A program made the translations under genes and the position numbers. DNA of 64,000 nucleotides from a virus, in IMG/VR virus record IMGVR_UViG_3300043420_000984, positions 1 through 64,000 of that record; one strand, given 5' to 3'. Below the pieces are notes generated by a model, which saw only the letters and a list, made by a program, of their open reading frames with translations, searched no databases and was not told the DNA's origin. Shown here one piece after another: positions 15,800 to 64,000 of the stretch (position 1 is the stretch's first letter; every line of letters begins with the position of its first letter).

Positions 15800-15872
15800 G
15801 CTCCTTTAGCTCTCTGGTGAAAGCACTGTCCTCATAAGACAAGAAAGGTGGGTTCGATCCCCTCAAGGAGCA
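15800..15872 (+). tRNA. tRNA with CAU anticodon (Met or Ile2)
   Basis: gctcctt/aaggagc; tgtc-CTCATAA-gaca; TTCGATC loop. Confidence 0.85.
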
Positions 15873-15875
15873 CCT

Positions 15876-15960
15876 GGGACGGTGGCGGAATTGGTAGACG
15901 CACCAGACTTAAAATCTGTTGAATGTAACATTCGTGAGGGTTCAAGTCCCTCGCGTCCCA
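15876..15960 (+). tRNA. tRNA-Leu(UAA)
   Basis: GGCGGAATTGGTAGACGC D arm; caga-CTTAAAA-tctg; variable arm. Confidence 0.92.
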
Positions 15961-15995
15961 TTGGGTTATAAATAACCTTGAGTTATCTAGAACCC

Positions 15996-16325: not shown

Positions 16326-16349
16326 TAACAGGATATACTAACAAATGTA

Positions 16350-16631
16350 ATGGCAGTTTTCAGATACACCATAACAAGGAAGCATGTCTTTATTGACAAT
16401 GAACCTGTTTTGATGTATTATATTGAGAACATACCATTTGCATTTGATATTCTCGAAGAAGATCAAAAACACGACAAGTGGATCTTATCTGAAGCAGCAC
16501 TCAATCAAGAATATACTATGGAAGATATCTTCCGTTATTCCGATTATTTGATTGCTGAAGAATGCCACCCAGTATTGTTTGAATTAGACCTAGTAAATCC
16601 TGAAGTATTGCCAGATGAACCAGTTTCTTGA
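16350..16631 (+). CDS. Hypothetical protein
   Basis: 93-aa acidic ORF overlapping cpeT start. Confidence 0.7.
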   Translation: MAVFRYTITRKHVFIDNEPVLMYYIENIPFAFDILEEDQKHDKWILSEAALNQEYTMEDIFRYSDYLIAEECHPVLFELDLVNPEVLPDEPVS

Positions 16632-17154
16632 ACTATTTGAAGGATCTTTTTCCAACAAGCGTCAAGCACAATCTCATCCTACTCGTTATGCTCATATCAG
16701 GGTACAACATCGGAAAATTTCCGATTATAGGTTCTATGGAGAACAATCTTACAATTACTTGCTAAATAGACCATATCGCCAGTTCGTAATTGAGGTGGTA
16801 GATGAGGGTAATGAAGTAGATGGAAACATCTACCGTCTCAAAAATTATGAGATTGAAGACCCTCAAAGGTTTGCCGAATGTAAAAATCTTGAACTCATCA
16901 CGGATGAGATCTTGACATACCGACCAGGGTGTGATAATATTATTAGGCAGACAGGACCCGAAACCTTCGAAGGTAAAAATGATACTTGCGAATGTTGGGT
17001 CATGCGTGGTACAATAAAGACCTACGTTCAAAACGAAGTTGTTCTCACACGAGACACCTATAAAGTTCTGGATCGTGGTCTCCACGCTGAAACCAATCAG
17101 AAAGTTTGGGGTTCTGATTGGGGAGCGTTTGAGTTCAAACGATTGCCTCTCTAG
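16615..17154 (+). CDS. cpeT: CpeT/CpcT-type phycobiliprotein lyase
   Basis: FSNKRQAQSHP..YAHI, YGEQ..RPYRQ, DRG..VWGSDWGAFEF. Confidence 0.9.
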   Translation: MNQFLELFEGSFSNKRQAQSHPTRYAHIRVQHRKISDYRFYGEQSYNYLLNRPYRQFVIEVVDEGNEVDGNIYRLKNYEIEDPQRFAECKNLELITDEILTYRPGCDNIIRQTGPETFEGKNDTCECWVMRGTIKTYVQNEVVLTRDTYKVLDRGLHAETNQKVWGSDWGAFEFKRLPL

Positions 17155-17216
17155 CTCAGTGGTAGAGCACCCGCCTTGTAAGCGGGCGGTCATCAGTTCA
17201 AATCTGATGGGGGGCT
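17145..17216 (+). tRNA. tRNA-Thr(UGU)
   Basis: cccgc-CTTGTAA-gcggg; AGCTCAGTGGTAGAGC; overlaps cpeT stop. Confidence 0.9.
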
Positions 17217-17277
17217 CTTGAAAGGTCTGGAAATGTTCGGATCTTTCATACGGATCGGGATCATCATATCCGATCCA

Positions 17278-17373
17278 CTCATCACTTGCGCTGGAAAGAT
17301 AAACCAGAATGCCGTGATAAGATAGAGGGTAAGCCTCTGTTATATCCTTATGAGGTATATCACGCTTACTCCA
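17278..17373 (+). ncRNA. ~95-nt pseudoknotted structured RNA, copy 1 (family not recognised)
   Basis: Homologous to 18656-18750 with compensatory changes in three helices. Confidence 0.75.
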
Positions 17374-17376
17374 TCT

Positions 17377-17450
17377 GGGGAATTAGCTCAGTTGGTAGTA
17401 GCACTTGCTTTGCAAGCAAGATGTCATCGGTTCGAGTCCGATATTCTCCA
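17377..17450 (+). tRNA. tRNA-Ala(UGC)
   Basis: G3:U70; cttgc-TTTGCAA-gcaag. Confidence 0.93.
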
Positions 17451-17473
17451 TTGAGAGGCGACGGTCTCTCAAA

Positions 17474-17657
17474 GGGTGTGACAGAATAATCCTATGCGGT
17501 CATGCACGGGATAATGTATATTAGGATAGGGGTGGTGCCCGCTGTAATACTGGGAGACCAGAGTTGCAGAATCCAATACCAAGGAATCCGAAAGTTCTAG
17601 GAAACGTTACTATCAGTGCGACCTCCTAGTTGTGAGTATGATAGAATCTCACCACCC
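17474..17657 (+). ncRNA. Probable manA RNA motif
   Basis: ~185 nt closed by gggtg/caccc, several internal hairpins, between tRNAs; size, context and recalled sequence fit the cyanophage manA motif. Confidence 0.6.
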
Positions 17658-17667
17658 ACAAACACAT

Positions 17668-17744
17668 CGCGGGATGGAACAGTCTGGTAGTTCAGCGGTC
17701 TCATAAGCCGCAGGTCGTGGGTTCAAATCCCACTCCCGCCCCCA
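17668..17744 (+). tRNA. Initiator-like tRNA-fMet(CAU), CCA encoded
   Basis: 5' CGCGGG, C1:C72 mismatch, CTCATAA loop. Confidence 0.85.
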
Positions 17745-17747
17745 TTT

Positions 17748-17815
17748 CAAAATTCACTTTTTGATTCTATAAATTCGGGAAAAATTTTTCCGCCAAAAAA
17801 TCGCCAAAAAAGTTG
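17748..17815. repeat. Phased A/T-tract intergenic element, copy 2
   Basis: Similar to 5293-5361. Confidence 0.75.
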
Positions 17816-17824
17816 AGGGCAAAA

Positions 17825-17983
17825 ATGTCACTAATTTCCCAAAAAGACAGAGAAGTAGTAATTGCTGCTCTTGAAAATTACATCATGAAGATCAGATCTG
17901 AAAATCCTCAGGATGATCAGCGTATCTCTGAAATCAATGCTTTGCTCAATTGGGTAAAACTTGAATATCAGAAAAATCTCTAA
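17825..17983 (+). CDS. Small hypothetical protein (52 aa, not in ORF track)
   Basis: MSLISQKDREVVIAALENY..LLNWVKLEY; GAGGG RBS. Confidence 0.65.
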   Translation: MSLISQKDREVVIAALENYIMKIRSENPQDDQRISEINALLNWVKLEYQKNL

Positions 17984-17989
17984 TATTAT

Positions 17990-18062
17990 TGGGGTGTAGC
18001 TCAGCGGTAGTAGCGGGAAGCTGTTAACTTCTAGGTCGCAGGTTCGATCCCTGCCACCCCAG
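17990..18062 (+). tRNA. tRNA-Asn(GUU)
   Basis: tggggtg/cacccca; gaag-CTGTTAA-cttc. Confidence 0.92.
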
Positions 18063-18247
18063 TTGCCAAAACGGCAAAAAACCCTTATAAATAAACACAC
18101 TAAAGGTCGAACATCATGTCTAACTTCAGCAAGCAAATTGAAATCTTTATGGAAAGCGATTGCCGCTATTGGCATATCGCACAGTCCCTCCTGCTTGCTA
18201 ATAAGGATAAACGTATGTAAGACGTAATCTGAAAAAGCAAAAAAGCA

Positions 18248-18282
18248 AGGGGAGGGAAACAAAAAGTTTCTCTCCCTTTTTT
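18248..18282 (+). terminator. Intrinsic terminator
   Basis: gggagggaaac-aaaaa-gtttctctccc followed by T6. Confidence 0.7.
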
Positions 18283-18289
18283 GTTGCCT

Positions 18290-18442
18290 GTGACAGTTTC
18301 CTAAGTGCCCACCCACTACCACCCAGAGATTGAAGCGGTGGTATATTACATAAGTCGGTGGGGGAACGAGACCCCAAACTGCCAAGTCCACTTTCGGAAC
18401 TGGCACAAACCACTTGCCCCGCAACGGGTTTGGTGGTATTCT
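18290..18442 (+). promoter_or_regulatory. Tandem early promoters driving the second tRNA block
   Basis: Two GTGNCA..TGNCAC-type palindromes each ~30 nt before an extended -10 (TGgTATATT 18342, TGgTATTCT 18437). Confidence 0.6.
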
Positions 18443-18448
18443 TAAGAG

Positions 18449-18574
18449 GTGGTTGAGAGAGAAGATTAAAGGTGGTTTTCAACCACCCCGACAACTAGAA
18501 GCGGGGACATAAGGTTGATGTAAAAGTAATTACCATGCTCTCTTAACCACACACACGCACCTTGACAATCTAAA
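18449..18574 (+). promoter_or_regulatory. rrn-like leader: long stem followed by boxA-like GCACCTTGACAA
   Basis: gtggttgagagag(18449-61)/ctctcttaaccac(18538-50); gcaccttgacaatctaaa 18557-74. Confidence 0.5.
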
Positions 18575-18582
18575 CCTTTAAT

Positions 18583-18655
18583 GGGTCTGTTGCATAGCGG
18601 CTAATGCACCTGGCTTTTAACCAGTATATCGTGGGTTCGAGTCCCACCAGACCCA
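18583..18655 (+). tRNA. tRNA-Lys(UUU)
   Basis: gggtctg/cagaccc; ctgg-CTTTTAA-ccag. Confidence 0.9.
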
Positions 18656-18750
18656 TTGCTACTTGCACTTGTCGATTAAACAAGAATGCCGTAGCAAGAC
18701 AGAGGCTATGTCCCTGTTATATCCTTATGAGGTATATCACACATAGTCCA
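18656..18750 (+). ncRNA. ~95-nt pseudoknotted structured RNA, copy 2
   Basis: Fills the tRNA-Lys/tRNA-Tyr spacer; covaries with copy 1. Confidence 0.78.
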
Positions 18751-18753
18751 TAT

Positions 18754-18835
18754 GGAAGGATGTCCGAGTGGTTAATGGAAACGGTCTGTAAAACCGTCGG
18801 CTCTGCCTTCGCAGGTTCGAATCCTGCTCCTCCCA
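18754..18835 (+). tRNA. tRNA-Tyr(GUA)
   Basis: acggt-CTGTAAA-accgt; variable arm. Confidence 0.92.
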
Positions 18836-18889
18836 CTTTATAAGTTTAATAACTTATAAATAATAGTGACACATTTTTGTTTCCCTACC

Positions 18890-19276
18890 ATGTTAAACTG
18901 TAAAACCTGTGGAATAGAACTGACTGAAGATAATACCTTCAGAAGGAGTGGAAGAAAAACAAACTTCCCAGTTGGATATTATAGACATTGTAAAAAATGT
19001 TATAATGCCAGCAGGTTAGGTAGAATGGTAGAAAACAAAAAGAAGCAAGTAGAATTTTTTGGTGGAAAATGTAAATTGTGTGGGTATGATAAATGCCATA
19101 ACGCACTTGAATTCCATCATTTAGACCCTACTATCAAGGAAGAAAGTCCATCTTCCTTGAGGCAAGTCACTGATGAACTTAGATGGAAAAGTGAATTGGA
19201 GAAGTGCATTCTTCTCTGTTCTAATTGTCATCGTGAAGTTCATGCTGGATTACATCCAAATTACTTGGCCCTATAG
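18890..19276 (+). CDS. Small HNH endonuclease 2 with N-terminal Zn finger
   Basis: CKTC..CKKC, GGKCKLCGY..LEFHHLDP..KCILLCSNCHREVH; TATAAATA at 18855. Confidence 0.9.
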   Translation: MLNCKTCGIELTEDNTFRRSGRKTNFPVGYYRHCKKCYNASRLGRMVENKKKQVEFFGGKCKLCGYDKCHNALEFHHLDPTIKEESPSSLRQVTDELRWKSELEKCILLCSNCHREVHAGLHPNYLAL

Positions 19277-19339
19277 TGAAGTGGTCTATCACGCCTACCT
19301 GTCTAGTAGGAATCTGGGATTCGAATTCCCATAGGGTCG
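19267..19339 (+). tRNA. tRNA-Asp(GUC)
   Basis: cctac-CTGTCTA-gtagg; overlaps HNH stop. Confidence 0.88.
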
Positions 19340-19482
19340 TTGGGAGTCAGTATTCTAACTCTCACGCATTCTTCAGAGGTTGCCAGTTTGCAGAAGAATG
19401 TTGTAGTAATAACTGGAATTGGGGAGGGATTTCCGCCCGATGATTTTAAATCATCACTTTGCGGGATACCCCCTCCCATCAA

Positions 19483-19557
19483 GTTCCTATCGACTAGCGG
19501 TTAGGTCACCACTCTTTCAAGGTGGCAGCACGGGTTCGAATCCCGTTAGGAATACCA
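19483..19557 (+). tRNA. tRNA-Glu(UUC), CCA encoded
   Basis: ccact-CTTTCAA-ggtgg. Confidence 0.9.
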
Positions 19558-19558
19558 A

Positions 19559-19632
19559 CGGAATGTAGCGCAGTTTGGTAGCGCATCTGTTTTGGGAACA
19601 GAGGGTCGCAGGTTCGAATCCTGTCATTCCGA
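19559..19632 (+). tRNA. tRNA-Pro(UGG)
   Basis: cggaatg/cattccg; tctgt-TTTGGGA-acaga. Confidence 0.93.
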
Positions 19633-19635
19633 TTT

Positions 19636-19708
19636 GGAAACATAGCTTAGTTGGTAAAGCATTCGACTGATAATCGAAAGACCACTGGTTCGAGTCCAGT
19701 TGTTTCCA
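19636..19708 (+). tRNA. tRNA-Ile(GAU)
   Basis: ttcga-CTGATAA-tcgaa. Confidence 0.92.
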
Positions 19709-19820
19709 CTATGGTGAACCTTAGTCCATCTGAGGAAGAAAGTTTTAGGATCTAGTCAATCCATAAAGACAAGTATTCCGATAAGGAGAATAAAGGTAGG
19801 GGGATGACTACCCTCTTTAT

Positions 19821-19903
19821 GGAAGATTGGCAGAGTGGTTAATGCAGCGGTTTGCTAAACCGTGAGGGTAAAACCTCCGTTGGTTCGAATCCAACATCTT
19901 CCG
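19821..19903 (+). tRNA. tRNA-Ser(GCU)
   Basis: gcggt-TTGCTAA-accgt; gagg/cctc variable arm; G73. Confidence 0.92.
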
Positions 19904-19907
19904 CCTT

Positions 19908-20606: not shown

Positions 20607-20614
20607 TATAAATA
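20607..20614 (+). promoter_or_regulatory. T4-type late promoter
   Basis: Exact TATAAATA ~40 nt before the giant structural gene. Confidence 0.8.
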
Positions 20615-20655
20615 AATCCTAGGACAAAAGCTTAAACCGTAGGGTCAGTATAATC

Positions 20656-23600
20656 ATGCCATTAACACGTCTGGATAACCTTATCAGCTCAAAAACTGGT
20701 AAGTATCTTTATGTTTCTCCTGATGACTTTAACGCAACTGATGCGTTAGCAAACAGAGGTAATTCACCTATTACACCATTTAAAAGCATCCAGCGTGCAT
20801 TCCTAGAAATCGCAAGATATTCATATCTTCCTGGTTTCGGTAATGACAGATTTGACCAGTTCAGTATTATGCTGATGCCTGGTATTCACTATATTGATAA
20901 CCGTCCTGGTCTGGTAGATACCAGTGGTATTGATGTATTTGGATTTGATCAAGCACTAAATTCTTGGACTGACAACTCGATCCTAGATATTTCTAATCCC
21001 GATAACGTCCTCTACAAGTTCAACAATACTGAGGGTGGTGCTATCATCCCTCGTGGTTCATCGCTTGTTGGTTATGACCTACGTAGAACAACAATCAGAC
21101 CACTCTACGTTCCAGATCCTGCATCAGTAACTGTTCCTCGTTCTGCAATTTTCAACGTAACTGGTGGTTGTTACTTCTGGCAGTTTACCATCAAAGATGG
21201 TCAAACAACTTCAGAATCTCCTCTATATGACAATACACAAGGCACAGGTCTTGTTTATTATGATCCAAATGACTTTACTAAGTTAACTGCTCCTAACTAT
21301 TCTCACCACAAACTGACTGTATTCGAATATGCAGATCAGGAAGAGTTGGGTCTATTCTATAGAAAGATTGCTAAGGCATTCTCTGCATATCAGCCTACAA
21401 TTGATGATCCAGGTGAATTTGATTTCAATATTCAAGAGAATAGAATTGTTGGTCCTCTTTCCGACAGTAGAGTTATTGAAAGTCTGAAATTAACAGATGC
21501 AACAACAAAGCCAAGTGTTCCTGCATCTACTTCTGAAATTGAAGTAACTACAAAAGTAGATCATGGATATTTCCAAGGTCAGTTTGTTGCTATTTCTGGA
21601 ACTGAGATTGATAGTGTCCTGGAAGGTGTCTTCCCTATCAAATCTATCGATCAGAACGATCCTAGAAAATTCACTTATGAAGTTCCAATTGTTGTAAGTG
21701 CAATTGGTACAAACTTAGTATCTGGTCAAACAGTTAGTGTTCCTACTTTAGGACAAAACGCACAAACACTTGCAGAAGTAGATAGCGTTGAATCAGCATC
21801 TCCATACGTCTTTAACTGTTCTATTCGTTCTACTTGGGGTATTTGCGGTATCTGGGCTAATGGTCTTAAGGCGACAGGCTTTAAGTCGATGGTTATTGCT
21901 CAGTATACTGGTGTTTCTCTACAGAAAGACGATAGAGCGTTCATTCGTTATGATGAGTATTCTAACACTTGGAACCAAGCATCTCTAACTGATGCTTTTG
22001 CTACTGTTCCTTATCACACTAAGGGTGATAGCTACTGGAAAGATGATTGGAGAAACTTCCACGTTCGCGCTTCGGAAGATGCATTCATTCAGAACGTTTC
22101 GATCTTCGCTGTTGGTTTCGCTGATCACTTCCTAATGGAGAGTGGTGGTGACATGTCGATCACCAACTCTAACTCCAACTTTGGTAACACCTCTCTACAT
22201 GCTATTGGTTTCAAAGGATTTGCCTTCAACCAAGACAAGGGTGGTTATATTACCGACATTATTCCACCACAGAAAATTGCTGAAGGATCTGCAAATACAA
22301 AACGAGTACAATATTATACTATTGATATCCAAGGAACCATCAAGGATAATAACAACTACACAAAATTGTTCTTAGGAAGTGATAGTGTAATCACTCCCAT
22401 CGACAGACCATCTGTGACTATTCAGGGTTATAGACTTGGATCTAAAACTGATGAAAAATTATTTGTTACTTTAGACCCAGCTTCTCCTGGTGGACCAGAA
22501 GAATTTAACGCAACCTTAGAACCAACAGGATTTGTAAAGTATATTGCCAGTGCCAGCATTTTAAATCCATCTGGAATTGCAATTAACAATATCTATGCTG
22601 ATGCTGCTAATTTAATCCAGAATAATCGCAGAATGATCCAGGAGGAGGTATTTGGATATATCTTTGAGAAGTATCCAAGACTTCAGAATATCCCATATGT
22701 AAATCCTGGTAGAGATCCAGATGCAAATCGTTTCTATGATGCAAGAGATTTAATTATTGCAAATCGCCAATATATTATTACTCAAGCTCAAGTTGAAACT
22801 CTAGCTGCGTATCCAACTACGAGTATTACTTTGTTTGATATTGGTGAAATAGTTGATGCTATTGCAGAAGATTTGAGAGATGGTGGTAACTTTAATACTA
22901 TTGAAAAAGTAAAAGAATATTTTAGTGGATCTGGTAATCTATCTTCTTTCCTTGGTTTTGAGGCGGAAGCTATATTTGCATTCAATAGAACTCGTGATCT
23001 ATGCAAACTTGCAATTGCAAACCTTCTTCCAAATAAAGCTTATCTATATGATCCAGATCCAAACAGTGAGATTGCTGGGTATGTACTTAGTAGAAATGGA
23101 ATTACTACTGCTGGATATACTGGATCGGAAGCGGAGGAACTGTCTTTAACAACAAATGGAGTTACTGTTGATGTAGCTAACAAAGTAGATCCAGCTGGAA
23201 GATTTAAAGATGCTAGTAACTTAATTTCAGCTAATAAAGATTTTATTGTTGATAATGCATTGGCGGAGATTGGTGTTTATCATCCTGACTTTTTCTTCCC
23301 AAATGATCCGCAAACCACAGCAGATTCTAGATTTGCTGATGCATATCGTTTAATTCGTCGTAATAGAGAAGAAATTCAAAATGCTGCTATTGCTGCTATT
23401 CTAACAAACTATCCAACATTCGTATTTCCAAATGGATCTACAGATAAGTGTCGCAGAGATATTGGTTATCTGATTGATTCTATTGCTTTAGATATTTTTC
23501 TTGGTGGAAATGAATATACAATCAAGTTCACCAGAAAGTATTTTGATGCACTTGGCAATCCAATTTCTGATGGTTTATCTGGTGAAGAAGCTCAAAGCAT

Positions 23601-26600
23601 TTATGGATTTAATGCTGCTAGAGATGCAATGATGCTAGCAGTGTCTAATCAATTGACTTATAAAGATGATACAATTACTGCTGGAGAATCTGAGTATGGA
23701 GACGGAAATGGTGTCGTTCCAAATACCAATCCAACAGCATGTGCTGACGTTCAAAATGCTATTTCCACATTAACCTCTATCGCTACACAAGCTATTAGTG
23801 ATGGAAATACAGATTCACTCGATGATTCTGGCAATCCAAATTATGTTATACCAACTTCCAGAACATTACTTGCTGGAGAATCAAAGTGCCGCAGAGACAT
23901 TGGATTTGTTGTTGATGCAATTATCAATGACTTGTGGTTTGGCGGTAATGAGTATATGATTGCTGCAACTAAGGAGTATTTCCTTTACAACGGATCTGCA
24001 CTACTTCCAAATGGAGTATCTGGGGAGATAGAACCATCTGTTACGGCATTTAAGAGAATTGCTGATGCAGTTAATTTATCTATTAATAATCAGACATACG
24101 AAAAAGATCTTACTATTACTTTAGATAATACTGGAGATCCAGTAGTTGTTTCTGATATTCATGCTGATGCTTACAATCTTGTTCTGAGAAACAAAGAGTT
24201 TATTGCTAAAGAAGCATATGAGCGTATGCTTATTGCTTTCCCAACATATACTCCACAATTAACTAATACAGAACAAGATTGTCTTGATGATGTATACAAA
24301 GTCCTTGAGGAGGTAATGTATAACGTTAAGTTTGGTGGTAATCATAGAGCATATGATGCTGCTAATGTTTATGTTACAAATACTTTAAATGGTGAACCTA
24401 TTGAAACGTTTATTGACTCTGAACGAGATGAAGCAGCGTATGTTTTTACTCAAGCTAGAGATATTGCAATCCAAGTATTGAGAAATGAGATCGTAAACCA
24501 AACTGGAAACAATACAATCCCTCTATACATAGACAATACGATTGTACCTGATTGGGAATCGCCAACATGCCAATCTGCAGCTTCTGCTGTTGCAACTTTA
24601 ATGGATATTGTTATCCAAGCGATTGGAAATGATACTGGTGTTGGAAATCTTACTGGAATTTTTAGAACAGAACCAACACAGCCAACTCAATATGTTACTG
24701 GCAATTGTTCTGATGTTCTTTCGTCTGTTGATACTTTAATCAGCATTCTGTGTGATGCAATTTCTGATTATTCACTAAACTCTTTACCATCACTAAGTCA
24801 CGGACAGTGGGATTGTGCTAACGTTCGCTCTGCAATCGAAAACTTATTCGATATTGTAAATGATGCATTGAGAACTTCTTCCTTAGCAGAATTGCCAGAA
24901 GTTAATACTGGTGGTTTTGGTGTAGTTGCAGAGCAATCCAAGTGTTTCCGTGATGTAACATATATTGTTGATGCTATTACAAATGACTTGAGACTTGGTG
25001 GAAATATCAACAGCGTTCAATTTGCGGAAGCTTATTATGTTGGTACACAATTAGAGTATATTGATGGAGAAAAGGTTGAAACTCTAGATGCTTGGGATTA
25101 TGTTGGTCAGATGGCAATCGCAGCGATGCGTAACTTTGATTTCCTTGCTCTAAATTGTCAGACTACTTTTGGAAGTGCTATTGTTGAAGTTGGAGATACT
25201 CGTGGTATTCTTATCGGTATGAGAGTACAGGAATTTGATAATACAGATCCTGTAAATCCTGCTTATGTAAATGGTTTACTACAACCAAATGCTACCGCAA
25301 TCTATAGCAATATTCCACAAGATACATTTGTTAAGAGAATTGTAAGCAACACTGAAATTGAAATTGGTGTTGCCAATTCTAGATTAGATGTTGGAGAAAC
25401 TGTTCCTGCCCTACAGACAAGTACTACTGCTTCTCTTTACTTTACATTTGAAAAGGGACAATGGGCAGATACTCTTCCAACAACTGTATTTGTTGGACCA
25501 GAAAGTAGCAATCCAGATGTTATTCAAGATACAACTGCTTTTTCTCCAGGATCTCCAACCCAGAGAGAATGTGCTGGTACTGCTAATGCTATTACCACTC
25601 TTGTTGAAAATATCACTACAATTATTAGTAGTGGCATTGGAACAGTTGCGCGAGAAGAGCAGACAGTAAACACTGCGCTATTTGCTTCTAGAGCAACAGT
25701 ATTTACTGTTAATGTAACTGGTTATGGATCAACAAATCCACATAACTTTGAAACTGGTACTCCAGTTAGACTAGTTCCACGTCCACGTTTTAATGTTGAT
25801 ACTGGTAAATATGTCGACATCGATAAACGTCTTGTTAGACTTCCAAATGGATTTGAAACAAATAGAACATATTATGTAATTGCTCCAGGAAGAAGAACAC
25901 AACCAGAAAATTACGCTAACACTACATTCTTCAATGGTAGTGATCAAACTAAGTTGATGTTAGCAACATCCAAAGAGAATGCTGCTGCTGGTATTTACAT
26001 TTACTCATCTGAATCTGAAAATATTGATGCGGATGTTGAGATTGACATCTACCAGTTTGTATTGGATGATAGTTATGATCTACACAACTATAAGTGCACT
26101 TTAACTAATACAGTTAATGCTGGCATTCAAACTGATGTACCACACATTTTTGATGTTCCATTCTCATCAACAACTCCTCAAAAAGTATTCTTTAGAGCTA
26201 TTGAGGGTGGGGTATTGCCACTTGTATCTACAACTTATGCAAATGATTCGGATGTTGCGATAGTTGATCCTTTTGATCCAGAAGTTGGAAACATTAACAA
26301 GACAACTGAGTTTTTTGCAAGATATCAAAATGATAAAGTATTTACTATTCACAAAACACATGCAGATGCTATTAATAATGTAAATCCAATCACATTTACA
26401 TCGGGTCAACTTGGAACTTTTGAAGTGTTCTCAAACAAACGCAGAAGTCCAGTTCATTTTGATCCAACATTTGCAGATGGAGTGACAGATAGTGGAAAGT
26501 GGTTCGTCAGATTGAAAGATGAGGGATCTTCTAGTGTACCTGAATCTATCAAGCAAGAAAATATCATGTGGAGGATCCATCAAATTGATTATGCTGATAG

Positions 26601-29600
26601 ACCAAAATCTACAGATACGTGGTTTACACGTCTAGATGATACTCGTGAAGCAAATGAAAGAACATATAAACTACGCTATGTTATCCCTAAGTATCTTGAA
26701 AATGCTAGGGATCCTATCAATGGATTTGTAATTAAGACTAGGACTGATGATACTAGAAAACTTGTACCACAAAAACTATTACTAAAACCAGTTGCTGGAA
26801 CTGTATATGGTGCTAGATTTGAGAATCCAGTTCAAGCTGGAGAATATATTGGATATGATACTACTGATTTTGAAAATCAATCTCTAAATCTAGATTTTGC
26901 TTATGATCCATATAAGAAAGATCTAACTGGATCTGGAATTGAATATCGTGCGTTTGCTAGATTTAACAGCGGAGTTCAAGCAACAATTCAGAGTGGTCGA
27001 TATGTTACTGATAAACTTAATGCAAACATTAAATATCTTGAACTAACTGTCTTTGATCATACAATTGATTCTCTAAATTATCCTGGACTTAGAAATGAAA
27101 ATCTAACAACGGTCAGAATTAATGCACCTCAGGGTGGAGAGTTTGTAACTAATAAAACACAAAGTATTTCGGCAAATGAGGTTGAGTGGTCTGGAAATTC
27201 TTCTGGTATTGCTAATATTCATGGATACTTTAGTGTTGGTGATGAGCACTATCTTATTCTCAAGAGCCTCCGTGGCGGTAAGTTAGAGTATAGTGAATTT
27301 GCTAATACTACTTTCACTCAGGGTAGTGTATTTGCAGATATGGTTGAAGATCAGGATATGGGCAAATCTCTCCCATTGAAGACACTTATTCGTAAGGGAT
27401 ATCCTGAGTATTACTATAAGCAAAATGGCGCGAACGTTTACACTATTACTCCTGGTGATCGTATTCAAGACGATGCTGGTATTGAATACTATGTTGAGAG
27501 TGTTGAAGATGCTGGTGTTATTGAAGATACATTCTACGTCTTTAGTTATGAGACACTGCAGCGTAGAATTGCTGGCCAGCAAGATGGTATTTACTACCTA
27601 AGCTGCCTACGTGGTAATATTTCTCCATTCCCAACTGGTGCTGGTTCTGGCGGCAACTTCAGAAACTTTAAGTTCTCGCAACCAGTTAGCAAACTATATC
27701 CACTAAACTACAAAAACGATCCTCTGTGGTTTAATAAAGCTGGTACAACTCAGGAAGAGAAAGATTATGCTGCAGCATTGATCGATCCACCGCAAACTTA
27801 TTCTGCCGCCGATAACTACATTCATGGACTTGTTACAACAAACGATTACAAGAACTCTGTAACTAGAGAACTTGTTGAAGATTTAATTAACCAACCAGCA
27901 TTCATTCAGAATACTTATTCTGGAGCAACTGCTATCCAAGCACAGACTGGTAATGCTACTTCTGGTTCAGAAGATCGCCGTATTCCTATTGCTGGTGCTA
28001 GTGATGTTTTATCGGATCAGAGATACTATGTTGAACTCCGCAGACCATCGATTGCTCGTGCTGGTAACCACACATTTGAGTATCTTGGTTTCGGTCCAGG
28101 TAACTACTCTACAGGTCTTCCTGCGCGTCAGGAGATCGTCTTAAGTCCCACTGAGGACTTCTATGCTCAAAGTAAGAAACAAGACGCTGGTATTGTCTTC
28201 TACACTGGTCTAAACTCTAACGGTGACCTCTATATTGGTAACCGTAAGATCAACGCTATTACTGGCGAAGAAACATTCTTAGAATCTGCAGTTCTTGTAG
28301 AAAGTGAGGATGATAGTGAAGATATTGGAGCACTTGTAACCACTTTTGATACACCTGTAACATTTAATCAAAATATTACAGTTGTTGGTGGAGATGGGTC
28401 ACAGCAAAATACATTCCAGTCTCCAATTGTTGTTTCGGTACAAGACAATAATCTTACAGAGCAAAGAGACGCTTTAATTATTCGTTCTAATGTATCTTCT
28501 GTTGATCCAGTAACTGGATTTGAGCAAGATGAAAGTCTTGATAGAACTTCATTTAGACCTCCAACATCTGGTGACATTAAATTAAGCAAGAACAGAATTC
28601 AAGCTGCCGTCTTTGGATTTAATGCTAGAGGAAACGGACAGAGTTATGCAATTCAAACGCATATCACATCTGGAATTCCATCTAATGTGACACCTAATAA
28701 CAATCAACTAATTGCTGATGGTGGCAATAGATTATATACAAATCAGTTTGTTTCTTATGGTGGTGTTGCTCCTTCTGCTGGTGATATTTTACTTAAGGGT
28801 ATTGAAGTTGGAAAATCTGGATCTCTTGGATGGATTTACGCAAATTACTATGAAAAGATTGCAGATCAGAGCATCTTTACTATTGAATTTGATGGTTCAA
28901 ATGTTGTTAAGGTTACATTAGTTGACTTCAATAGTGGTCTAGACATTAAGAATGGAGATCTTGGAATTAATTCTGGATCTCAAATTAGAATTAGTAATTA
29001 TCCAGACGCCAGACTAAATCAAATTTGGACTATCTTTAGTCCAAATGGCGATGCGTTTGATCCAAATAATAACTATTTCCATTTCCAAGTAATTGATCAA
29101 ATTTCACTATCAACTTTGAATTGGTTGACTGATATTATTTCTCCTGTTCTTCCTGGAGCTCCATCACCAACCATAGAATTTTCCAATTCTAGTTGGAAAG
29201 AAGTTGGAGTTATTGGTGCAGAAGCAATAAGAACTGAGACTGAAACTATTGGTGATTACAAAGTCGGTATCAATACTATTGCTCGTACTCCACATAGTTC
29301 TACTCAGAAGGCATTTATCGATGAATATGCTGAGCCAAGAGCAAATCTTGATATTGTAGGTAACGTCTTCATCAGCGGTACTAAGTTTAACTCATATCTA
29401 TCTGAAACTACAACAATTAAGACAGAAACAAATGATGATAACGCTCTGATTGTTGGTGGAGATAGTCTTGATCCCGATAGCAAGGCAACTCTGAGAGTGA
29501 TGACCACAAATGGTGGTAGATTTGGAATTAATACTGCAGTTGTTGATAATATAAATCCACAGAACGTTCTTGATAAGAACTTAGTTGTCGTTGGAAATGG

Positions 29601-32136
29601 TAGAATTACTAGTAACTTCGAAGTCAAAGGAGATTTGGAAGTTAATGGTGGGGATATTACAACAACGTCTAACACGTTTAACTTAGTCAACAATACTGCA
29701 AATATTCTCAATATTGCAGGCGAGGGACAAGTACTTAGCATTGGAAATAATACTGCAGTTGCTCAAAACATTAATATTGGAAATAATACTCCTAATCAAG
29801 TAGTTCAAATTGGTGGAGCTGCAACAGATACAACTCTTAGAATTCACAGAAATTCTACACAAGCTGTTGTTGATATTGCTAGTGTGAGGGATACAAACCC
29901 TGGAAACACCTGCGAAATTACAATTGGTGGTGCTTGGAGTAATACAGCATCGTTTACTCAAATTGGAACAAGACAAACACTAATTGCTGGAGACCTTGAG
30001 ATTGGTACTAAGTTTGCCCCAGGAACAAGTCAAGCAAGAATATTCGCTCAGACAAGAACTGTAAATTTATTTGACGGAGACCAAACAAACACTGTAAATC
30101 TTGCAACAAATGCAACAGCATTCACTCTTGGATCTACTGGTGGTAGTACTACTATACGAAACACTCTCAATGTTCTTGCTTCTGCTGTTGTTGAAGCAAA
30201 TATTATTATTAACGGTGGATTAAATGCTGGAATTATTGAAATTGAGAGAGGTAGATTTGCAACATCTGTTGTTCCACATAATGTAGGAAGTGTTGAAAAT
30301 TCTAATATTGACTTTTATCAATATGATGATACTGGAAAGTTAATTGATACTGGTGGTGTTTCTTTCTGGGGTTCTACTGCTTTCTTACTTGCTGGTGGTC
30401 AAATTGCTGGTATTGATAATATTACAAATGATGGTGGTGAAAATAGAATTCCTGGAACTTATAGTTTTATTAATGCTACTGGTGGTACTGGAAGTGGAGC
30501 GACATTTACTGTTTTAATTAGATTTGACAAGACTTTCGAAATTACAATTGAAAGTCCTGGATCTGGTTACACAGATAACGATCTGCTTACTATCACCAAC
30601 AATCAACTTGGTGGAGGATCTGGCGGTGGAGATCTGACTTTTGAGATAAATGGAACTAACGATGCTGGCACTAATTACTTCTTGCCAATTACAACACCAT
30701 CTCAATTAGATTTCCAAGTTGGTGATCTTTTATTGATTGATAGAGCAAATGAAGCATCTCCTGATATTGTTGGTAGTGGTGGAAATGAGGTTACTGGACT
30801 TAGAGATGAATCTAAGAGTGAAATTGTTAGGGTTGTTGGACTTGCAAACCTAAGCAATCCTTATGATCCACTTGGTTACAGACTGATTGTTTCTAGAGGT
30901 CAGGAAGGAACTCAAGTAAGAATAGATCACCCAGATAACTGTGTTATTGCAAGACTGATTAAACAGTCAAATGCAAGCTTTATCACTGGTGCTGATTTGG
31001 ATCTTGATGGAAATCTAGATGTTCCATCTTCTGGTATCAGCAATTCTCCTCTTAATGTTAGAATTGGTGTTGCTGAGTTTGGTGGAGTAATTACAACTAG
31101 AGATTATCTTAGACTTTCTGGATCTGAATTTGTTAGAGTTGCAAGTCTAATTTCTACAACTCCACAATCTTTAATTATTAATGATGGTGGACTTCCAGCT
31201 GCTGAAGTATTTAAAGTTGAATCAACAACAGGTGATACTTATATCTTCGGTGATATTAAATCTGGTTCTGGATTTAACAAGTTCGTGGTTGATTCCGCAA
31301 CTGGTAACACAAACATCGCTGGAACTCTAACCACTGAAAATACACTAAAGATCAATGGTTCTACGATTGTAAATACTCAGTTCTTCACGATCACAAATGG
31401 TGGATCTACTGGAGTTCCATTGAGAACTACTTTCCAAGTTGATACTGCAACTGGAGATCTGACAATTAATGGCGGTAATTTTAACATTTTTGGTACAGAT
31501 GGAACAACACCAAGACTAACATTTAATAATTCTTCTGGTGACTTTACAACATATGGATCATTCTCCGCTCTTGGAACTGGTCCGAGCACATTTGGTGGCG
31601 ATATAGTTGTTGCTGGGGATGCTTATATCAATGGTGGTGATTTATCAATCACTTCCGATGATGATGAAATCTTTAGTGTTTCTAATGACGGGGCAGTTAA
31701 GATTGCTGGAATTAATAATTACTTTACTAGAACTGGTGGTCCTAAGTGGGAGTATATTTCTGATACTACTATTACTGCTCAGGCAAATGTAAATTATTTT
31801 GTAAATTCTACTGGTAATACTTTATTCAGACTACCACAAAATCCATTAATTGGTGATACAATTCGCATTATAGATATTAGTGGTAATCTAACATATAATC
31901 TAAGTCTAGTAGTAAGAGCACCAGATAATGTAAGAGTTCAGGGAAGTTCTACAAACACAGCAAGAAGTCTCACTAGTGGAGTTCCAGTAAATAGCTTTAT
32001 TGGATATAATGGCGGTGAACTTGTAGTACAAACTCCATATGCTGCTTTTGGTTTAGTATATGCTGGATCTTCAACTCCAGACGGAAATCCTGGTGTTCCT
32101 TCTGGGTTAACTGGTTGGTATTTAATGGACGTATAA
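20656..32136 (+). CDS. Giant (3826 aa) virion structural / tail-fibre-like protein
   Basis: MPLTRLDNL..YVSPDD..PFKSIQRA N-terminus as in cyanomyovirus fibres; pectin-lyase-like region; helical KCRRD repeats; Gly/Thr-rich C-terminal beta repeats. Confidence 0.85.
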   Translation: MPLTRLDNLISSKTGKYLYVSPDDFNATDALANRGNSPITPFKSIQRAFLEIARYSYLPGFGNDRFDQFSIMLMPGIHYIDNRPGLVDTSGIDVFGFDQALNSWTDNSILDISNPDNVLYKFNNTEGGAIIPRGSSLVGYDLRRTTIRPLYVPDPASVTVPRSAIFNVTGGCYFWQFTIKDGQTTSESPLYDNTQGTGLVYYDPNDFTKLTAPNYSHHKLTVFEYADQEELGLFYRKIAKAFSAYQPTIDDPGEFDFNIQENRIVGPLSDSRVIESLKLTDATTKPSVPASTSEIEVTTKVDHGYFQGQFVAISGTEIDSVLEGVFPIKSIDQNDPRKFTYEVPIVVSAIGTNLVSGQTVSVPTLGQNAQTLAEVDSVESASPYVFNCSIRSTWGICGIWANGLKATGFKSMVIAQYTGVSLQKDDRAFIRYDEYSNTWNQASLTDAFATVPYHTKGDSYWKDDWRNFHVRASEDAFIQNVSIFAVGFADHFLMESGGDMSITNSNSNFGNTSLHAIGFKGFAFNQDKGGYITDIIPPQKIAEGSANTKRVQYYTIDIQGTIKDNNNYTKLFLGSDSVITPIDRPSVTIQGYRLGSKTDEKLFVTLDPASPGGPEEFNATLEPTGFVKYIASASILNPSGIAINNIYADAANLIQNNRRMIQEEVFGYIFEKYPRLQNIPYVNPGRDPDANRFYDARDLIIANRQYIITQAQVETLAAYPTTSITLFDIGEIVDAIAEDLRDGGNFNTIEKVKEYFSGSGNLSSFLGFEAEAIFAFNRTRDLCKLAIANLLPNKAYLYDPDPNSEIAGYVLSRNGITTAGYTGSEAEELSLTTNGVTVDVANKVDPAGRFKDASNLISANKDFIVDNALAEIGVYHPDFFFPNDPQTTADSRFADAYRLIRRNREEIQNAAIAAILTNYPTFVFPNGSTDKCRRDIGYLIDSIALDIFLGGNEYTIKFTRKYFDALGNPISDGLSGEEAQSIYGFNAARDAMMLAVSNQLTYKDDTITAGESEYGDGNGVVPNTNPTACADVQNAISTLTSIATQAISDGNTDSLDDSGNPNYVIPTSRTLLAGESKCRRDIGFVVDAIINDLWFGGNEYMIAATKEYFLYNGSALLPNGVSGEIEPSVTAFKRIADAVNLSINNQTYEKDLTITLDNTGDPVVVSDIHADAYNLVLRNKEFIAKEAYERMLIAFPTYTPQLTNTEQDCLDDVYKVLEEVMYNVKFGGNHRAYDAANVYVTNTLNGEPIETFIDSERDEAAYVFTQARDIAIQVLRNEIVNQTGNNTIPLYIDNTIVPDWESPTCQSAASAVATLMDIVIQAIGNDTGVGNLTGIFRTEPTQPTQYVTGNCSDVLSSVDTLISILCDAISDYSLNSLPSLSHGQWDCANVRSAIENLFDIVNDALRTSSLAELPEVNTGGFGVVAEQSKCFRDVTYIVDAITNDLRLGGNINSVQFAEAYYVGTQLEYIDGEKVETLDAWDYVGQMAIAAMRNFDFLALNCQTTFGSAIVEVGDTRGILIGMRVQEFDNTDPVNPAYVNGLLQPNATAIYSNIPQDTFVKRIVSNTEIEIGVANSRLDVGETVPALQTSTTASLYFTFEKGQWADTLPTTVFVGPESSNPDVIQDTTAFSPGSPTQRECAGTANAITTLVENITTIISSGIGTVAREEQTVNTALFASRATVFTVNVTGYGSTNPHNFETGTPVRLVPRPRFNVDTGKYVDIDKRLVRLPNGFETNRTYYVIAPGRRTQPENYANTTFFNGSDQTKLMLATSKENAAAGIYIYSSESENIDADVEIDIYQFVLDDSYDLHNYKCTLTNTVNAGIQTDVPHIFDVPFSSTTPQKVFFRAIEGGVLPLVSTTYANDSDVAIVDPFDPEVGNINKTTEFFARYQNDKVFTIHKTHADAINNVNPITFTSGQLGTFEVFSNKRRSPVHFDPTFADGVTDSGKWFVRLKDEGSSSVPESIKQENIMWRIHQIDYADRPKSTDTWFTRLDDTREANERTYKLRYVIPKYLENARDPINGFVIKTRTDDTRKLVPQKLLLKPVAGTVYGARFENPVQAGEYIGYDTTDFENQSLNLDFAYDPYKKDLTGSGIEYRAFARFNSGVQATIQSGRYVTDKLNANIKYLELTVFDHTIDSLNYPGLRNENLTTVRINAPQGGEFVTNKTQSISANEVEWSGNSSGIANIHGYFSVGDEHYLILKSLRGGKLEYSEFANTTFTQGSVFADMVEDQDMGKSLPLKTLIRKGYPEYYYKQNGANVYTITPGDRIQDDAGIEYYVESVEDAGVIEDTFYVFSYETLQRRIAGQQDGIYYLSCLRGNISPFPTGAGSGGNFRNFKFSQPVSKLYPLNYKNDPLWFNKAGTTQEEKDYAAALIDPPQTYSAADNYIHGLVTTNDYKNSVTRELVEDLINQPAFIQNTYSGATAIQAQTGNATSGSEDRRIPIAGASDVLSDQRYYVELRRPSIARAGNHTFEYLGFGPGNYSTGLPARQEIVLSPTEDFYAQSKKQDAGIVFYTGLNSNGDLYIGNRKINAITGEETFLESAVLVESEDDSEDIGALVTTFDTPVTFNQNITVVGGDGSQQNTFQSPIVVSVQDNNLTEQRDALIIRSNVSSVDPVTGFEQDESLDRTSFRPPTSGDIKLSKNRIQAAVFGFNARGNGQSYAIQTHITSGIPSNVTPNNNQLIADGGNRLYTNQFVSYGGVAPSAGDILLKGIEVGKSGSLGWIYANYYEKIADQSIFTIEFDGSNVVKVTLVDFNSGLDIKNGDLGINSGSQIRISNYPDARLNQIWTIFSPNGDAFDPNNNYFHFQVIDQISLSTLNWLTDIISPVLPGAPSPTIEFSNSSWKEVGVIGAEAIRTETETIGDYKVGINTIARTPHSSTQKAFIDEYAEPRANLDIVGNVFISGTKFNSYLSETTTIKTETNDDNALIVGGDSLDPDSKATLRVMTTNGGRFGINTAVVDNINPQNVLDKNLVVVGNGRITSNFEVKGDLEVNGGDITTTSNTFNLVNNTANILNIAGEGQVLSIGNNTAVAQNINIGNNTPNQVVQIGGAATDTTLRIHRNSTQAVVDIASVRDTNPGNTCEITIGGAWSNTASFTQIGTRQTLIAGDLEIGTKFAPGTSQARIFAQTRTVNLFDGDQTNTVNLATNATAFTLGSTGGSTTIRNTLNVLASAVVEANIIINGGLNAGIIEIERGRFATSVVPHNVGSVENSNIDFYQYDDTGKLIDTGGVSFWGSTAFLLAGGQIAGIDNITNDGGENRIPGTYSFINATGGTGSGATFTVLIRFDKTFEITIESPGSGYTDNDLLTITNNQLGGGSGGGDLTFEINGTNDAGTNYFLPITTPSQLDFQVGDLLLIDRANEASPDIVGSGGNEVTGLRDESKSEIVRVVGLANLSNPYDPLGYRLIVSRGQEGTQVRIDHPDNCVIARLIKQSNASFITGADLDLDGNLDVPSSGISNSPLNVRIGVAEFGGVITTRDYLRLSGSEFVRVASLISTTPQSLIINDGGLPAAEVFKVESTTGDTYIFGDIKSGSGFNKFVVDSATGNTNIAGTLTTENTLKINGSTIVNTQFFTITNGGSTGVPLRTTFQVDTATGDLTINGGNFNIFGTDGTTPRLTFNNSSGDFTTYGSFSALGTGPSTFGGDIVVAGDAYINGGDLSITSDDDEIFSVSNDGAVKIAGINNYFTRTGGPKWEYISDTTITAQANVNYFVNSTGNTLFRLPQNPLIGDTIRIIDISGNLTYNLSLVVRAPDNVRVQGSSTNTARSLTSGVPVNSFIGYNGGELVVQTPYAAFGLVYAGSSTPDGNPGVPSGLTGWYLMDV

Positions 32137-61812: not shown

Positions 61813-63180
61813 TATCAAACGCATCAAAGTCAAAGAAACCGCAGAGATTGACGCATCTAACTTCACAGGTAAGTTAGAGAATCTTATCGCACAACTTCAA
61901 GATTGGATAAATGAAGGTGAGTGGGAAGGGATTGAGGAATATTATGATGGTGGTTATGACCTTTCTTCTCCTATCGTAGAGTATTATCGTCTTTACAAGT
62001 TCCGCGAAGAAAACGACCAAGAGTATAATAAAAGAGTAAAACAACTGGAGAAAGAAAAAGCAGAAAAAGCAAAAGCAAAGGAACGAAAACTTCAACAACT
62101 CAAGAAAGACCTTGCTAATCTAACTGAAGACGAACTCAAACAACTTGGAGTAAAATGACTGAACGAGTAAAATTCACACACATCACACGAGTGATTGACC
62201 CAAAGACACGCATTCATTATCTTGACGCAATAGACACCAACGGAAATCATTGGAGTGCTGAAATGCAAACTGGTGTAGAACGATGGATTATCTACAAGGA
62301 AGTTTGGAAAGAAGACCCACAGCAACCTTACATTCTATGAAACATCCTACAAAAGATTGGGAATGGGAAGAAACTGCCGAAGTCGCATTTCAGGAATGGT
62401 TCAACGGAGAGTATGGTAATTTTACATTCCGTTGTGAATGGTTCTTTGGTGATTGTGAAGTTGAGGATGTGAATACTCGTAAGGATTTGATGACTAAGTG
62501 GGTTCATTCCGCATTTTTGACGGGTTATAATACTGGGAGATGCTCCAAGACAGATGAGTGATCTAATCTTCTACACAAATAATGAGGAAACATACCGTAT
62601 TTCTTTTCCAACTCTTGGAACCAAATGTCCTGAAACTAAACTTGAAATCAAAATGACTGAAACCGACATCTCAAAAGTTCTCATAGAAGGAGAATACGCA
62701 ACCATTATGGGTGTGAAGTATAAGAGAGTGGAAGAACCAAAAAGTTTCTATGATAAACTTTGGGAAGAACTTGGAAAGAAAGTAGGATATGGTATTGATT
62801 GTGATGAACTGACTGATAGGGTTATGGACTTGATTAAAGATAATATTCCAGAACCTACGGGAGAGTTTCAACCATCTCCTCAAACACCAGAACAAGTTGC
62901 TGATGGTTTGAAAGAAGCATTCCGTGAAGCAGTCAAGCAAGGTGTGGTATCATCTACTAAATCAAAAACTCTCACAGATCTCATTTATCGTTGGTGGGAT
63001 GATATATTCACAACTCATAGTAGTCGGGGTATGGAAACTTCTATTGAAGATTTGGTAGACCAGATTGAGTTATTTCTACCTAAAGAACAATCTGCTGCTG
63101 GTTCTCAAAATGCTTATGTTGAATCTGCTGTGGAGGGATTTAATGATGCGATTAAACAAATCAAATCAAAGTTGAGGTAA
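61808..63180 (+). other. Four hypothetical ORFs
   Basis: 61808-62158, 62155-62340, 62337-62561, 62554-63180. Confidence 0.65.
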
Positions 63181-63189
63181 ATAAATAAT

Positions 63190-63250
63190 AATGTCTGTTT
63201 GGACGGCAATCTCTACAGACAAAGATTGGGTGCTCTTTTGGGCACCTTTT
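63190..63250 (+). ncRNA. Candidate small antisense RNA / regulatory hairpin upstream of homing endonuclease
   Basis: TAAATAAATA upstream, gtctgt/acagac hairpin, terminator ggtgctc-tttt-gggcacc-tttt, 17-nt complementarity to 63265-63281. Confidence 0.5.
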
Positions 63251-63287
63251 CTATTATAAATAGTATTGCCGTCCAAATAGAATAGAA

Positions 63288-63983
63288 ATGAACTACCTAA
63301 AGGTATATTGTAACCTTATTAGGAAAGCAGAGAATAGAAATCCTCCTGAAGGATATACGGAAAAACATCATACATTTCCAAAAAGTATCTTTGGAAAGAA
63401 TAATAAAATTGTTGTGCTTACTGGAAGGGAACATTACATAGCACACGCATTATTGGAAAAGGCATTTATCAAAAGATATGGATTGAATAATATAAAAACA
63501 CAAAAAATGATAAAAGCATTTTGGTGTATGAATAATCAAAAAACAAAAAATACATATCTTAATTCCCATTTATATGAAAGTTCAAAAATAAGATACATTG
63601 AAAATATAAAAGGAGAAAATCACCACTGGTATGGGAAAAAACATTCCCAAGAAACCAAAGAAAAAATGAGAAAAAGAGAAACACATCCTATGAGTGGAAA
63701 AACTCATAGTGACGAAACGAAAATAAAAATGAGTAAATCTCATATAGGAAAACCTTCACCAAAAGGAATGTTAGGAAAAAATCATACAAAAGAGACAAAA
63801 CAAAAACTACAACAAAGTAAGGAAGTTAAATCTTTTTCAGTAATAAGTCCTACTGGTGAAATAATTCATTCTAAAAATACTAAACAATTTTGTAGAGATA
63901 ATAATCTGGATAAAGGTCACTTTTCTCAAGTTTTGAATGGAAAACGACCATCCCATAAGGGATTTCGTCTCTATACTGGATAA
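63288..63983 (+). CDS. Free-standing homing endonuclease (HNH N-terminus, NUMOD3 repeats)
   Basis: EKHHTFPKS..N..VVLTGREHYIAH; G+xHSxETKxKM repeats; TATAAATA at 63255. Confidence 0.9.
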   Translation: MNYLKVYCNLIRKAENRNPPEGYTEKHHTFPKSIFGKNNKIVVLTGREHYIAHALLEKAFIKRYGLNNIKTQKMIKAFWCMNNQKTKNTYLNSHLYESSKIRYIENIKGENHHWYGKKHSQETKEKMRKRETHPMSGKTHSDETKIKMSKSHIGKPSPKGMLGKNHTKETKQKLQQSKEVKSFSVISPTGEIIHSKNTKQFCRDNNLDKGHFSQVLNGKRPSHKGFRLYTG

Positions 63984-64000
63984 GGACACTTCCAAAACTG

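Follow-up and report, generated by a model that had tools for sequence, protein, structure and literature searches.

We have analyzed a 64,000-nucleotide (nt) stretch of viral DNA (positions 1 to 64,000 of IMG/VR record IMGVR_UViG_3300043420_000984, referred to here as the window) and describe within it the interval 63178-63290, which ends with the start codon of a homing-endonuclease gene. Homing endonucleases are selfish genes that need to spare the phage carrying them, and the means by which they are restrained are known mainly from T4. Judged from its sequence, the interval forms the control head at the 5′ end of a mobile cassette that carries this gene, and within it the leader of the endonuclease messenger RNA (mRNA) can pair with a hairpin encoded further upstream. 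We regard it as almost certain that this leader-hairpin pairing is functional. Our working model for its use combines masking of the leader in cis, late transcription from a promoter next to the gene (P2) and a small RNA that would be made from a second promoter-like box at the cassette edge (P1) and would act in trans; as a whole this model is held tentatively, with confidence that stops just short of even.

The interval opens with the TAA stop codon (63178-63180) of a resident open reading frame (ORF), and all of its features are on the + strand. P1, a late-promoter-like box of sequence AATAAATA with the variant A at -13, forms the 5′ edge of the cassette (63180-63187). It is followed by hairpin 1 (63193-63220), which has a 6-base-pair (bp) stem (63193-63198 with 63215-63220) and a 16-nt loop and whose first base is the purine predicted as the P1 start site (+1). 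The 5′ stem strand and loop of this hairpin contain the leader-complementary 5′ arm (63194-63210), and the 3′ arm (63265-63281) is the endonuclease mRNA leader itself; both were recognized as an inverted repeat and by covariation. Between the arms lie an intrinsic-terminator-like element (63228-63251), detected by a terminator scan as a hairpin of 8 pairs, 5 of them G-C, with a loop of 4 (63228-63247) and a T-run, and the consensus late promoter P2, TATAAATA (63255-63262). The two arms are complementary over 17 nt with a single G-U (63197/63278), and the resulting long helix stops 6 nt 5′ of the ATG (63288, read from the sequence) and includes the conserved AG of a Shine-Dalgarno-like element. 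A first-pass annotation of this DNA had listed the same boxes, hairpin, terminator and 17-nt complementarity, and our reading agrees with it base for base.

A 130-nt RNA reading through the interval is predicted to fold at -47 kcal/mol, compared to -21.5 ± 3.5 kcal/mol for shuffled sequences (z = -7.4; 0/200 as low), and in this fold the 17-bp long helix encloses the terminator hairpin. The motif ATAAATA is under-represented in the window (12 observed versus 19.5 expected, 11 of them on the + strand), and 2 of the 12 copies fall within the interval. Given the fold z-score, the rarity of the box and the recurrence of the arrangement, with compensatory changes, in dozens of independent loci, the arrangement is not a product of chance. 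Two other possibilities for the interval were considered and rejected. A 22-codon frame (63191-63259), running from an ATG to a TAA inside the P2 box, was discarded as a peptide gene because its ATG is missing in most relatives, and an attenuator was rejected by inspection, there being no alternative pairing between the 3′ strand of hairpin 1 and the 5′ strand of the terminator. The terminator tail could additionally pair with the bases immediately 5′ of the ATG, but other subclasses of the module do not conserve this helix.

The same arrangement of roughly 100 nt recurs ahead of related genes. In a protein-seeded scan of IMG/VR we found 79 endonuclease loci (39-87% identity), and in 72 of them the ATG is preceded, in order, by NNTAAATA (P1), 6-7 nt, the hairpin with the 5′ arm, a second G+C-rich hairpin with a T-run, TATAAATA (P2), 4 nt, the complementary leader and a further 6-7 nt. 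Sequence 5′ of P1 is unrelated between loci, to the point of being unalignable. The other seven loci (L025, L039, L044, L046, L049, L050 and L055), which we refer to as class 2, encode the same HNH family and have no P1; in these, a single large hairpin immediately precedes the late promoter and presents a 10-nt 5′ arm in its loop, the local fold and the long-range one being of similar energy. When a covariance model built from 51 modules was used to search further flanks and genomes, it recovered one copy in this contig and about 45 further copies in the flanks or genomes of other phages. In total, 80 distinct modules were collected, and the alignment has 62 unique modules; as the search model contains the P1 box, the extra copies found with it are biased towards having the box, and the unbiased figure is 72/79.

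The module is not confined to one kind of nuclease. In addition to the MobE-like HNH/NUMOD3 family it precedes at least four other nuclease families, making at least five in all. Among the others are a GIY-YIG protein, an endonuclease VII-like HNH protein, a family with NUMOD3 (phrog_15526/314) and two unannotated families. Two modules, one from the cultured phage S-SRM01 (L167) and one from an IMG/VR contig (L170, contig G003), are only one base apart and stand before different families (MVNPNRFYTY... and MTSQSPRIY..., respectively), which argues that nuclease genes exchange the control head as one piece. Six modules are present in S-SRM01, one of them at 192421-192522, and nine in a 136-kb IMG/VR contig (G006; L177, L182, L186-L192); two of the latter have identical arms before the same nuclease family, and a further two, which stand before different families, are distinguished by just one compensated base pair. 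A search of Rfam returned no family at gathering score, the best match being a spurious hit to mir-77 (26.5 bits versus a gathering score of 83).

Some individual copies are of interest in their own right. The sole module found without a P1 box (L086, 1393-1497) also has two mismatches in its leader-hairpin complementarity and may be decaying. In S-SRM01 (L160; NC_070963.1, 1447-1504), the annotated start of the homing endonuclease gp297 falls inside the terminator hairpin, 55 nt 5′ of a conserved ATG (MNYLK...), and is probably too early. In six modules (L016, L023, L029, L061, L109 and L117:1407), part of the P2 region is duplicated (TATAAA...TATAAATA) in the stretch from the terminator to the leader, which suggests slippage or recombination at the promoter box.

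The statistics for the pairing come from 51 aligned modules. Together, the long helix and the terminator are 87% paired, a value that drops to 34-48% when the 3′ partner is slid by one to three columns. Changes on both sides are seen in 11 of the 17 pairs of the long helix; the terminator helix is 90.8% paired and has compensatory changes in 4 of its 8 pairs. None of 500 shuffles matched the observed percent paired, the number of cells changed on both sides or the covariation score, RNAalifold recovers the long helix unaided, and more than 20 different arm pairs occur among the modules. The first-pass annotation had proposed looking for loop-leader covariation upstream of related NUMOD3/HNH genes, and both the covariation and the conserved complementarity are there. 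Maintenance of the pairing by compensatory evolution is thus strongly supported by the comparison of sequences.

There is precedent for a pairing of this kind acting in cis. For I-TevI, I-TevII, I-TevIII, segB and Aeh1 mobE, a helix masks the initiation region and a late promoter yields late transcripts that lack the 5′ arm (PMC2988022, PMC3014915); the first-pass annotation had noted that T4 endonuclease genes block early translation with cis hairpins. In our window the ORF upstream shares its strand with the endonuclease gene and lies among sigma-70-type early modules, with the intrinsic terminator intervening. By analogy with T4 I-TevI and Aeh1 mobE, we would expect early transcripts from upstream to end mostly at this terminator, and any that read through to fold into the long helix, burying the short leader and the Shine-Dalgarno-like AG and preventing early translation. 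Transcripts from P2, which are predicted to start at the first base of the 14-17-nt leader segment and would lack the 5′ arm, would be translatable late. The cassette's own late promoter would then be the only source of nuclease expression, the control head silencing other transcripts. On the strength of this analogy, it is likely that read-through RNA has its leader masked in cis.

Cis masking is an already known kind of control, and the shared features are several. As in the T4-type device, the translation initiation region is in a helix on read-through RNA (with blocking of ribosomes being presumed), TATAAATA is positioned such that the 5′ arm is missing from late transcripts, and the gene under control encodes a homing endonuclease. 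Dassa et al. (2009) described hairpins holding TATAAATA, with two mutually complementary motifs, before endonuclease ORFs of marine metagenomic cyanophage-like 'fractured genes' (PMC2677866), and a promoter flanked by two mutually complementary conserved motifs is common to those, the T4-type device and the module described here. In contrast to the T4-type device, however, the arms here are separated by 54 nt, with a full intrinsic terminator between them, the 5′ arm belongs to a covarying local hairpin of its own, and a second invariant late-promoter box stands at the cassette edge, in start-site register with that hairpin; an E. coli T4-like mobE relative has a simple local hairpin only. The enclosed terminator, covarying hairpin 1 and second promoter box go unmentioned in the T4-type and metagenomic accounts cited here, and the word 'terminator' occurs 0 times in PMC2677866. 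What is new, then, is the invariant P1 core at the cassette edge, the coincidence of the purine at the P1 start with the base of hairpin 1, the covariation of hairpin 1 in its own right and the terminator between the arms.

These features are also what makes a trans-acting RNA worth considering. The P1 core TAAATA is invariant in the 62 unique aligned modules and in all 80 distinct modules, despite the unrelated flanks. The two preceding positions (-13/-12) vary, being AA in 22, TA in 16, AC in 15, GA in 11, TC in 9, CA in 6 and CC in 1 of the 80, and these variants match known late-promoter variants: A(-13) is found at 9/50 T4 late promoters and Aeh1 uses (a/g)CTAAATA (PMC2988020), and the late-promoter consensus of cyanophage S-PM2 is NATAAATA (PMC2984593). 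In all 80 modules P1 is followed by five mostly A/T bases and then a purine, which is the base of hairpin 1. The geometry is the same at P2, where -13/-12 is TA in 77/80 modules and the predicted +1 is again a purine in 80/80, falling on base one or two of the 3′ arm. Three stem positions of hairpin 1 show compensatory changes, among them a switch from T-A to C-G at the hairpin base that is absent from the long helix; these come from per-sequence folds, which lean towards pairing and were used since differing loop lengths make the MAFFT alignment uninformative for this hairpin. A T-run of at least 4 follows the second hairpin in 67/80 modules. Taken together, the features of the box and its surroundings make it somewhat probable that P1 is an active late promoter giving rise to a discrete RNA.

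The RNA predicted from the P1 start to the terminator is 52-63 nt long among the modules, and a two-hairpin fold is predicted for all 62 P1 transcripts. In our window it would be about 59 nt (63193-63251, as placed from geometry, fold and cofold), with a folding energy of -24.1 kcal/mol (z = -4.6). The 14 nt at the start of the P2 mRNA could pair with its loop; the net cofold gain of the predicted RNA and the leader is -15.7 kcal/mol in the window, and the cognate mean over 98 modules is -14.8 kcal/mol versus approximately -3 kcal/mol for non-cognate combinations. A possible scenario is that P1 fires late to give a stable two-hairpin RNA of 52-63 nt, the loop of which would nucleate pairing with the 5′ end of the P2 mRNA (net about -15 kcal/mol), so that translation of the endonuclease would be damped in trans. 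The control head would then probably throttle P2 transcripts as well as silencing others. Such a late RNA is plausible given the invariant P1, the purine at its start, the covarying hairpin 1 and the terminator between the arms, but damping in trans, as predicted from sequence, is a step about which our confidence falls slightly below even.

Several observations weigh against a role in trans. First, covariation cannot separate cis from trans pairing and fits the former equally well. Second, P1 departs from the consensus at -13/-12 in 64/80 modules (the 16 with TA being the remainder) and may therefore be weak, and the T-run is three or shorter in 13/80. Third, in 46/79 contexts the upstream ORF terminates at the TAA of P1 or at a TAA/TAG four bases further along; part of the P1 conservation may reflect the supply of a stop codon at the cassette edge, which weakens the case for P1 as a promoter. 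Fourth, the class 2 relatives, which are without P1, still hold the 5′ arm in a hairpin loop, which means that a local hairpin is not specific to a free RNA; they also show that control of this nuclease family is possible in the absence of P1. Finally, cassettes sharing a genome show no sign of orthogonality, as 3.2% of their pairs are cross-reactive at -10 kcal/mol or lower compared to 3.3% of random pairs from different families, and one contig has two cassettes with the same arms. A first sample had given 0/66 cross-reactive within-genome pairs, and the background level was reached after 15 more large contigs were scanned. The orthogonality comparison lends no support to trans action; it is not decisive, as cross-talk need not be harmful. 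The first-pass annotation had taken the separate promoter and terminator to suggest a free RNA of about 60 nt acting in trans. The promoter and terminator have gained comparative support from the constant core and purine and the frequent T-run, while the step to trans action is left in doubt by a covariation signal that suits cis just as well and by the seven relatives that lack the upstream box.

The strongest competitor to our working model is that control is in cis only, the module being an elaborated version of the T4 late-promoter-in-hairpin device in which the terminator insulates the gene from early read-through, the long helix silences the rest and P2 supplies late transcripts. The upstream TAAATA would then be kept as a cassette-end stop codon, a ribonuclease-sensitive A/U tract or a recombination junction, and hairpin 1 would be a co-transcriptional folding intermediate or a stabilizer of the 3′ end of the upstream mRNA. 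This is the established paradigm for the T4 and Aeh1 genes named above, it accords with the TATAAATA-holding hairpins of the metagenomic endonuclease ORFs, and another HNH gene in the window (at 15996) has a simple T4-type hairpin; the class 2 relatives, the use of the box as a stop codon and the missing orthogonality signal point the same way. Nevertheless, the supply of a stop codon does not explain the invariance of six bases, because in 12/80 modules the base after the box is T or C, ruling out a second stop there, and T5 and A6 are still fixed, and because the box is kept where the upstream ORF stops before it. It is also kept where another terminator stands immediately 5′ of P1 (L018-L021, L026). 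A cis-only device further leaves unexplained the purine at the predicted start in 80/80 modules, coinciding with the hairpin base, and the T-A to C-G covariation specific to hairpin 1. We consider this alternative less probable than not, though it has to be taken seriously.

A different scenario is that a small RNA is made, either from P1 or by processing of the 3′ end of the upstream mRNA, and does not repress. It could, for example, base-pair with the opening 14 nt of the P2 mRNA and, as a duplex, shield that mRNA from 5′-end-dependent decay, which would be a positive effect, or the RNA could act on the copy of the same cassette in a co-infecting phage. In keeping with this, the complementarity begins at the predicted first base of the mRNA and leaves the 6-7 nt before the AUG free, and upstream transcripts that end at the terminator would also bear the hairpin at their 3′ end. 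On the other hand, the leader is only about 20 nt long and a 14-17-bp duplex ending at -7 would lie within the ribosome footprint, making repression the simpler expectation. A second target was sought in the window, and the best other matches to the loop complement have 2 mismatches in 13 nt. We consider a non-repressing RNA improbable.

MobE-type enzymes are protein-only, DNA-binding endonucleases, and the reading of the RNA as a partner of the nuclease, which the first-pass annotation had suggested as possible, or as its guide, in a ribonucleoprotein like those of the IscB/TnpB omega-RNAs, is very improbable, for it draws on the adjacency to a nuclease gene and the conserved structure and nothing else, whereas HNH/NUMOD3, GIY-YIG, endonuclease VII-like and unannotated families all have this module ahead of them, near-identical copies (L167 and L170) stand before unrelated ones, and the variable segment matches the leader of the gene itself and not a DNA target.

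For repression in trans there are instructive parallels in temperate phages. The c4 RNAs of bacteriophages P1 and P7 (acting on icd/ant) and the CI RNA of bacteriophage P4 are encoded upstream of their targets on the same strand and carry the complementary bases in hairpin loops. They target the downstream initiation region, and their specificity differs between relatives by matched changes on both partners. These RNAs are processed from an operon transcript and control immunity. The module described here shares with the c4 type the complementarity of loop bases to a downstream initiation region and specificities that covary, as seen in the more than 20 arm pairs; it differs in its predicted own late promoter and terminator, its residence in a lytic T4-like phage and its target, a selfish nuclease. 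For a role in trans, the closest functional analogue is the c4 RNA of bacteriophages P1 and P7, which has been described as trans-acting (PMC8546580).

Two other comparisons are less close. CfrI is an antisense RNA of about 225 nt in cyanophage S-PM2 connecting psbA with the F-CphI homing endonuclease gene (PMC2984593); it too is a non-coding RNA tied to a homing endonuclease gene in a T4-like cyanophage, but it is encoded on the opposite strand, overlaps the coding region, is about four times longer and has no relation to our module in sequence or architecture. The first-pass annotation had also likened the arrangement to a type I toxin-antitoxin pair, in which, similarly, a small RNA would block translation of an adjacent and potentially harmful product. 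This likeness does not hold up, since the target is a 231-amino-acid NUMOD3/HNH DNA endonuclease and not a small toxic membrane peptide. In addition, both genes are on the same strand, a differential-stability logic is not evident and the 22-codon frame in the predicted RNA is not conserved.

The 91.5-kb contig (39.6% G+C) to which the window belongs is from a T4-like cyanophage related to S-SRM01, S-CREM1 and S-PM2. Megablast of the region against cultured phages found no close DNA relative, and in a distant blastn comparison S-SRM01 was the only match. We place the cassette at 63181-63983 (803 bp, + strand) because two related phages have empty sites (L113, L114) at which the last codons and TAA of the resident ORF are joined directly to the sequence that follows 63983 here; the shared TAA makes the exact end positions ambiguous. 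It thus extends from the P1 box to the stop codon of the endonuclease gene (63288-63983, + strand), which encodes a MobE-like HNH protein of 231 amino acids with NUMOD3 repeats and an I-HmuI-like domain (Pfam NUMOD3, 2.1e-18; phrog_655 homing endonuclease, 2.9e-35) and whose tblastn matches are genes annotated as MobE or homing endonuclease. The resident ORF (62554-63180, + strand, from the ORF list), the stop codon of which adjoins the cassette, encodes 208 amino acids; it had no match in a Pfam search and has homologues in S-SRM01, S-CREM1 and S-PM2 as well as at 80 IMG/VR loci.

To the right, outside the cassette, the next gene's resident early-promoter/hairpin module begins (63984-64000, + strand); at the empty sites the same sequence directly follows the stop codon. 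This module continues to about 64065 in the contig (L161); it opens with GGACACTT and contains a G+C hairpin over a TTGAA -35-like element and a TATAAT box. It is also present in L113, L114, L099, L001, L002 and L036, occurs 3′ of the stop codons of many genes and is the usual right-hand neighbor of endonuclease cassettes; we take it to resemble the promoter-early stem-loop cassettes of T4-type hyperplastic regions. Elsewhere in the window, a cluster of 14 transfer RNA (tRNA) genes (15708-19905) also encodes two small HNH endonucleases (15996-16325 and 18890-19276); a tRNA and a TATAAATA box immediately precede each gene. In the hairpin of the first, which is of the classic T4 type, the promoter is in the 5′ arm and the pre-ATG bases are in the 3′ arm. 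A TATAAATA box is also found 5′ of a 3826-amino-acid ORF (within 20608-32136) matching tail-fiber/virion structural families, and its position there supports reading TATAAATA as the late promoter of this phage.

With regard to the wider significance of these findings, the module amounts to a compact unit of control, exchangeable between genes and common to at least five cyanophage nuclease families. It is absent from Rfam, and its covariation support is sufficient for curation as an RNA family. The six copies in cultured S-SRM01 make the device directly testable, and the many matched loop-leader pairs may be of interest to builders of orthogonal riboregulators. We tentatively extend our working model to T4-like cyanophages in general, which may carry a family of late, same-strand small RNAs, one for every cassette and as many as nine or ten in a genome, with each having its own gp55-type promoter and terminator and pairing in trans with the 5′ end of the neighboring nuclease mRNA; our confidence in this extension, too, is a shade below even. 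If it is correct, these RNAs would be the first class of trans-acting regulatory small RNAs in T4-type phages, and a natural library of more than 20 small RNA-leader specificities would be traveling with mobile nuclease genes. If P1 is a working promoter, the cassettes would have an added layer of trans-acting RNA control that is undescribed for T4-type phages.

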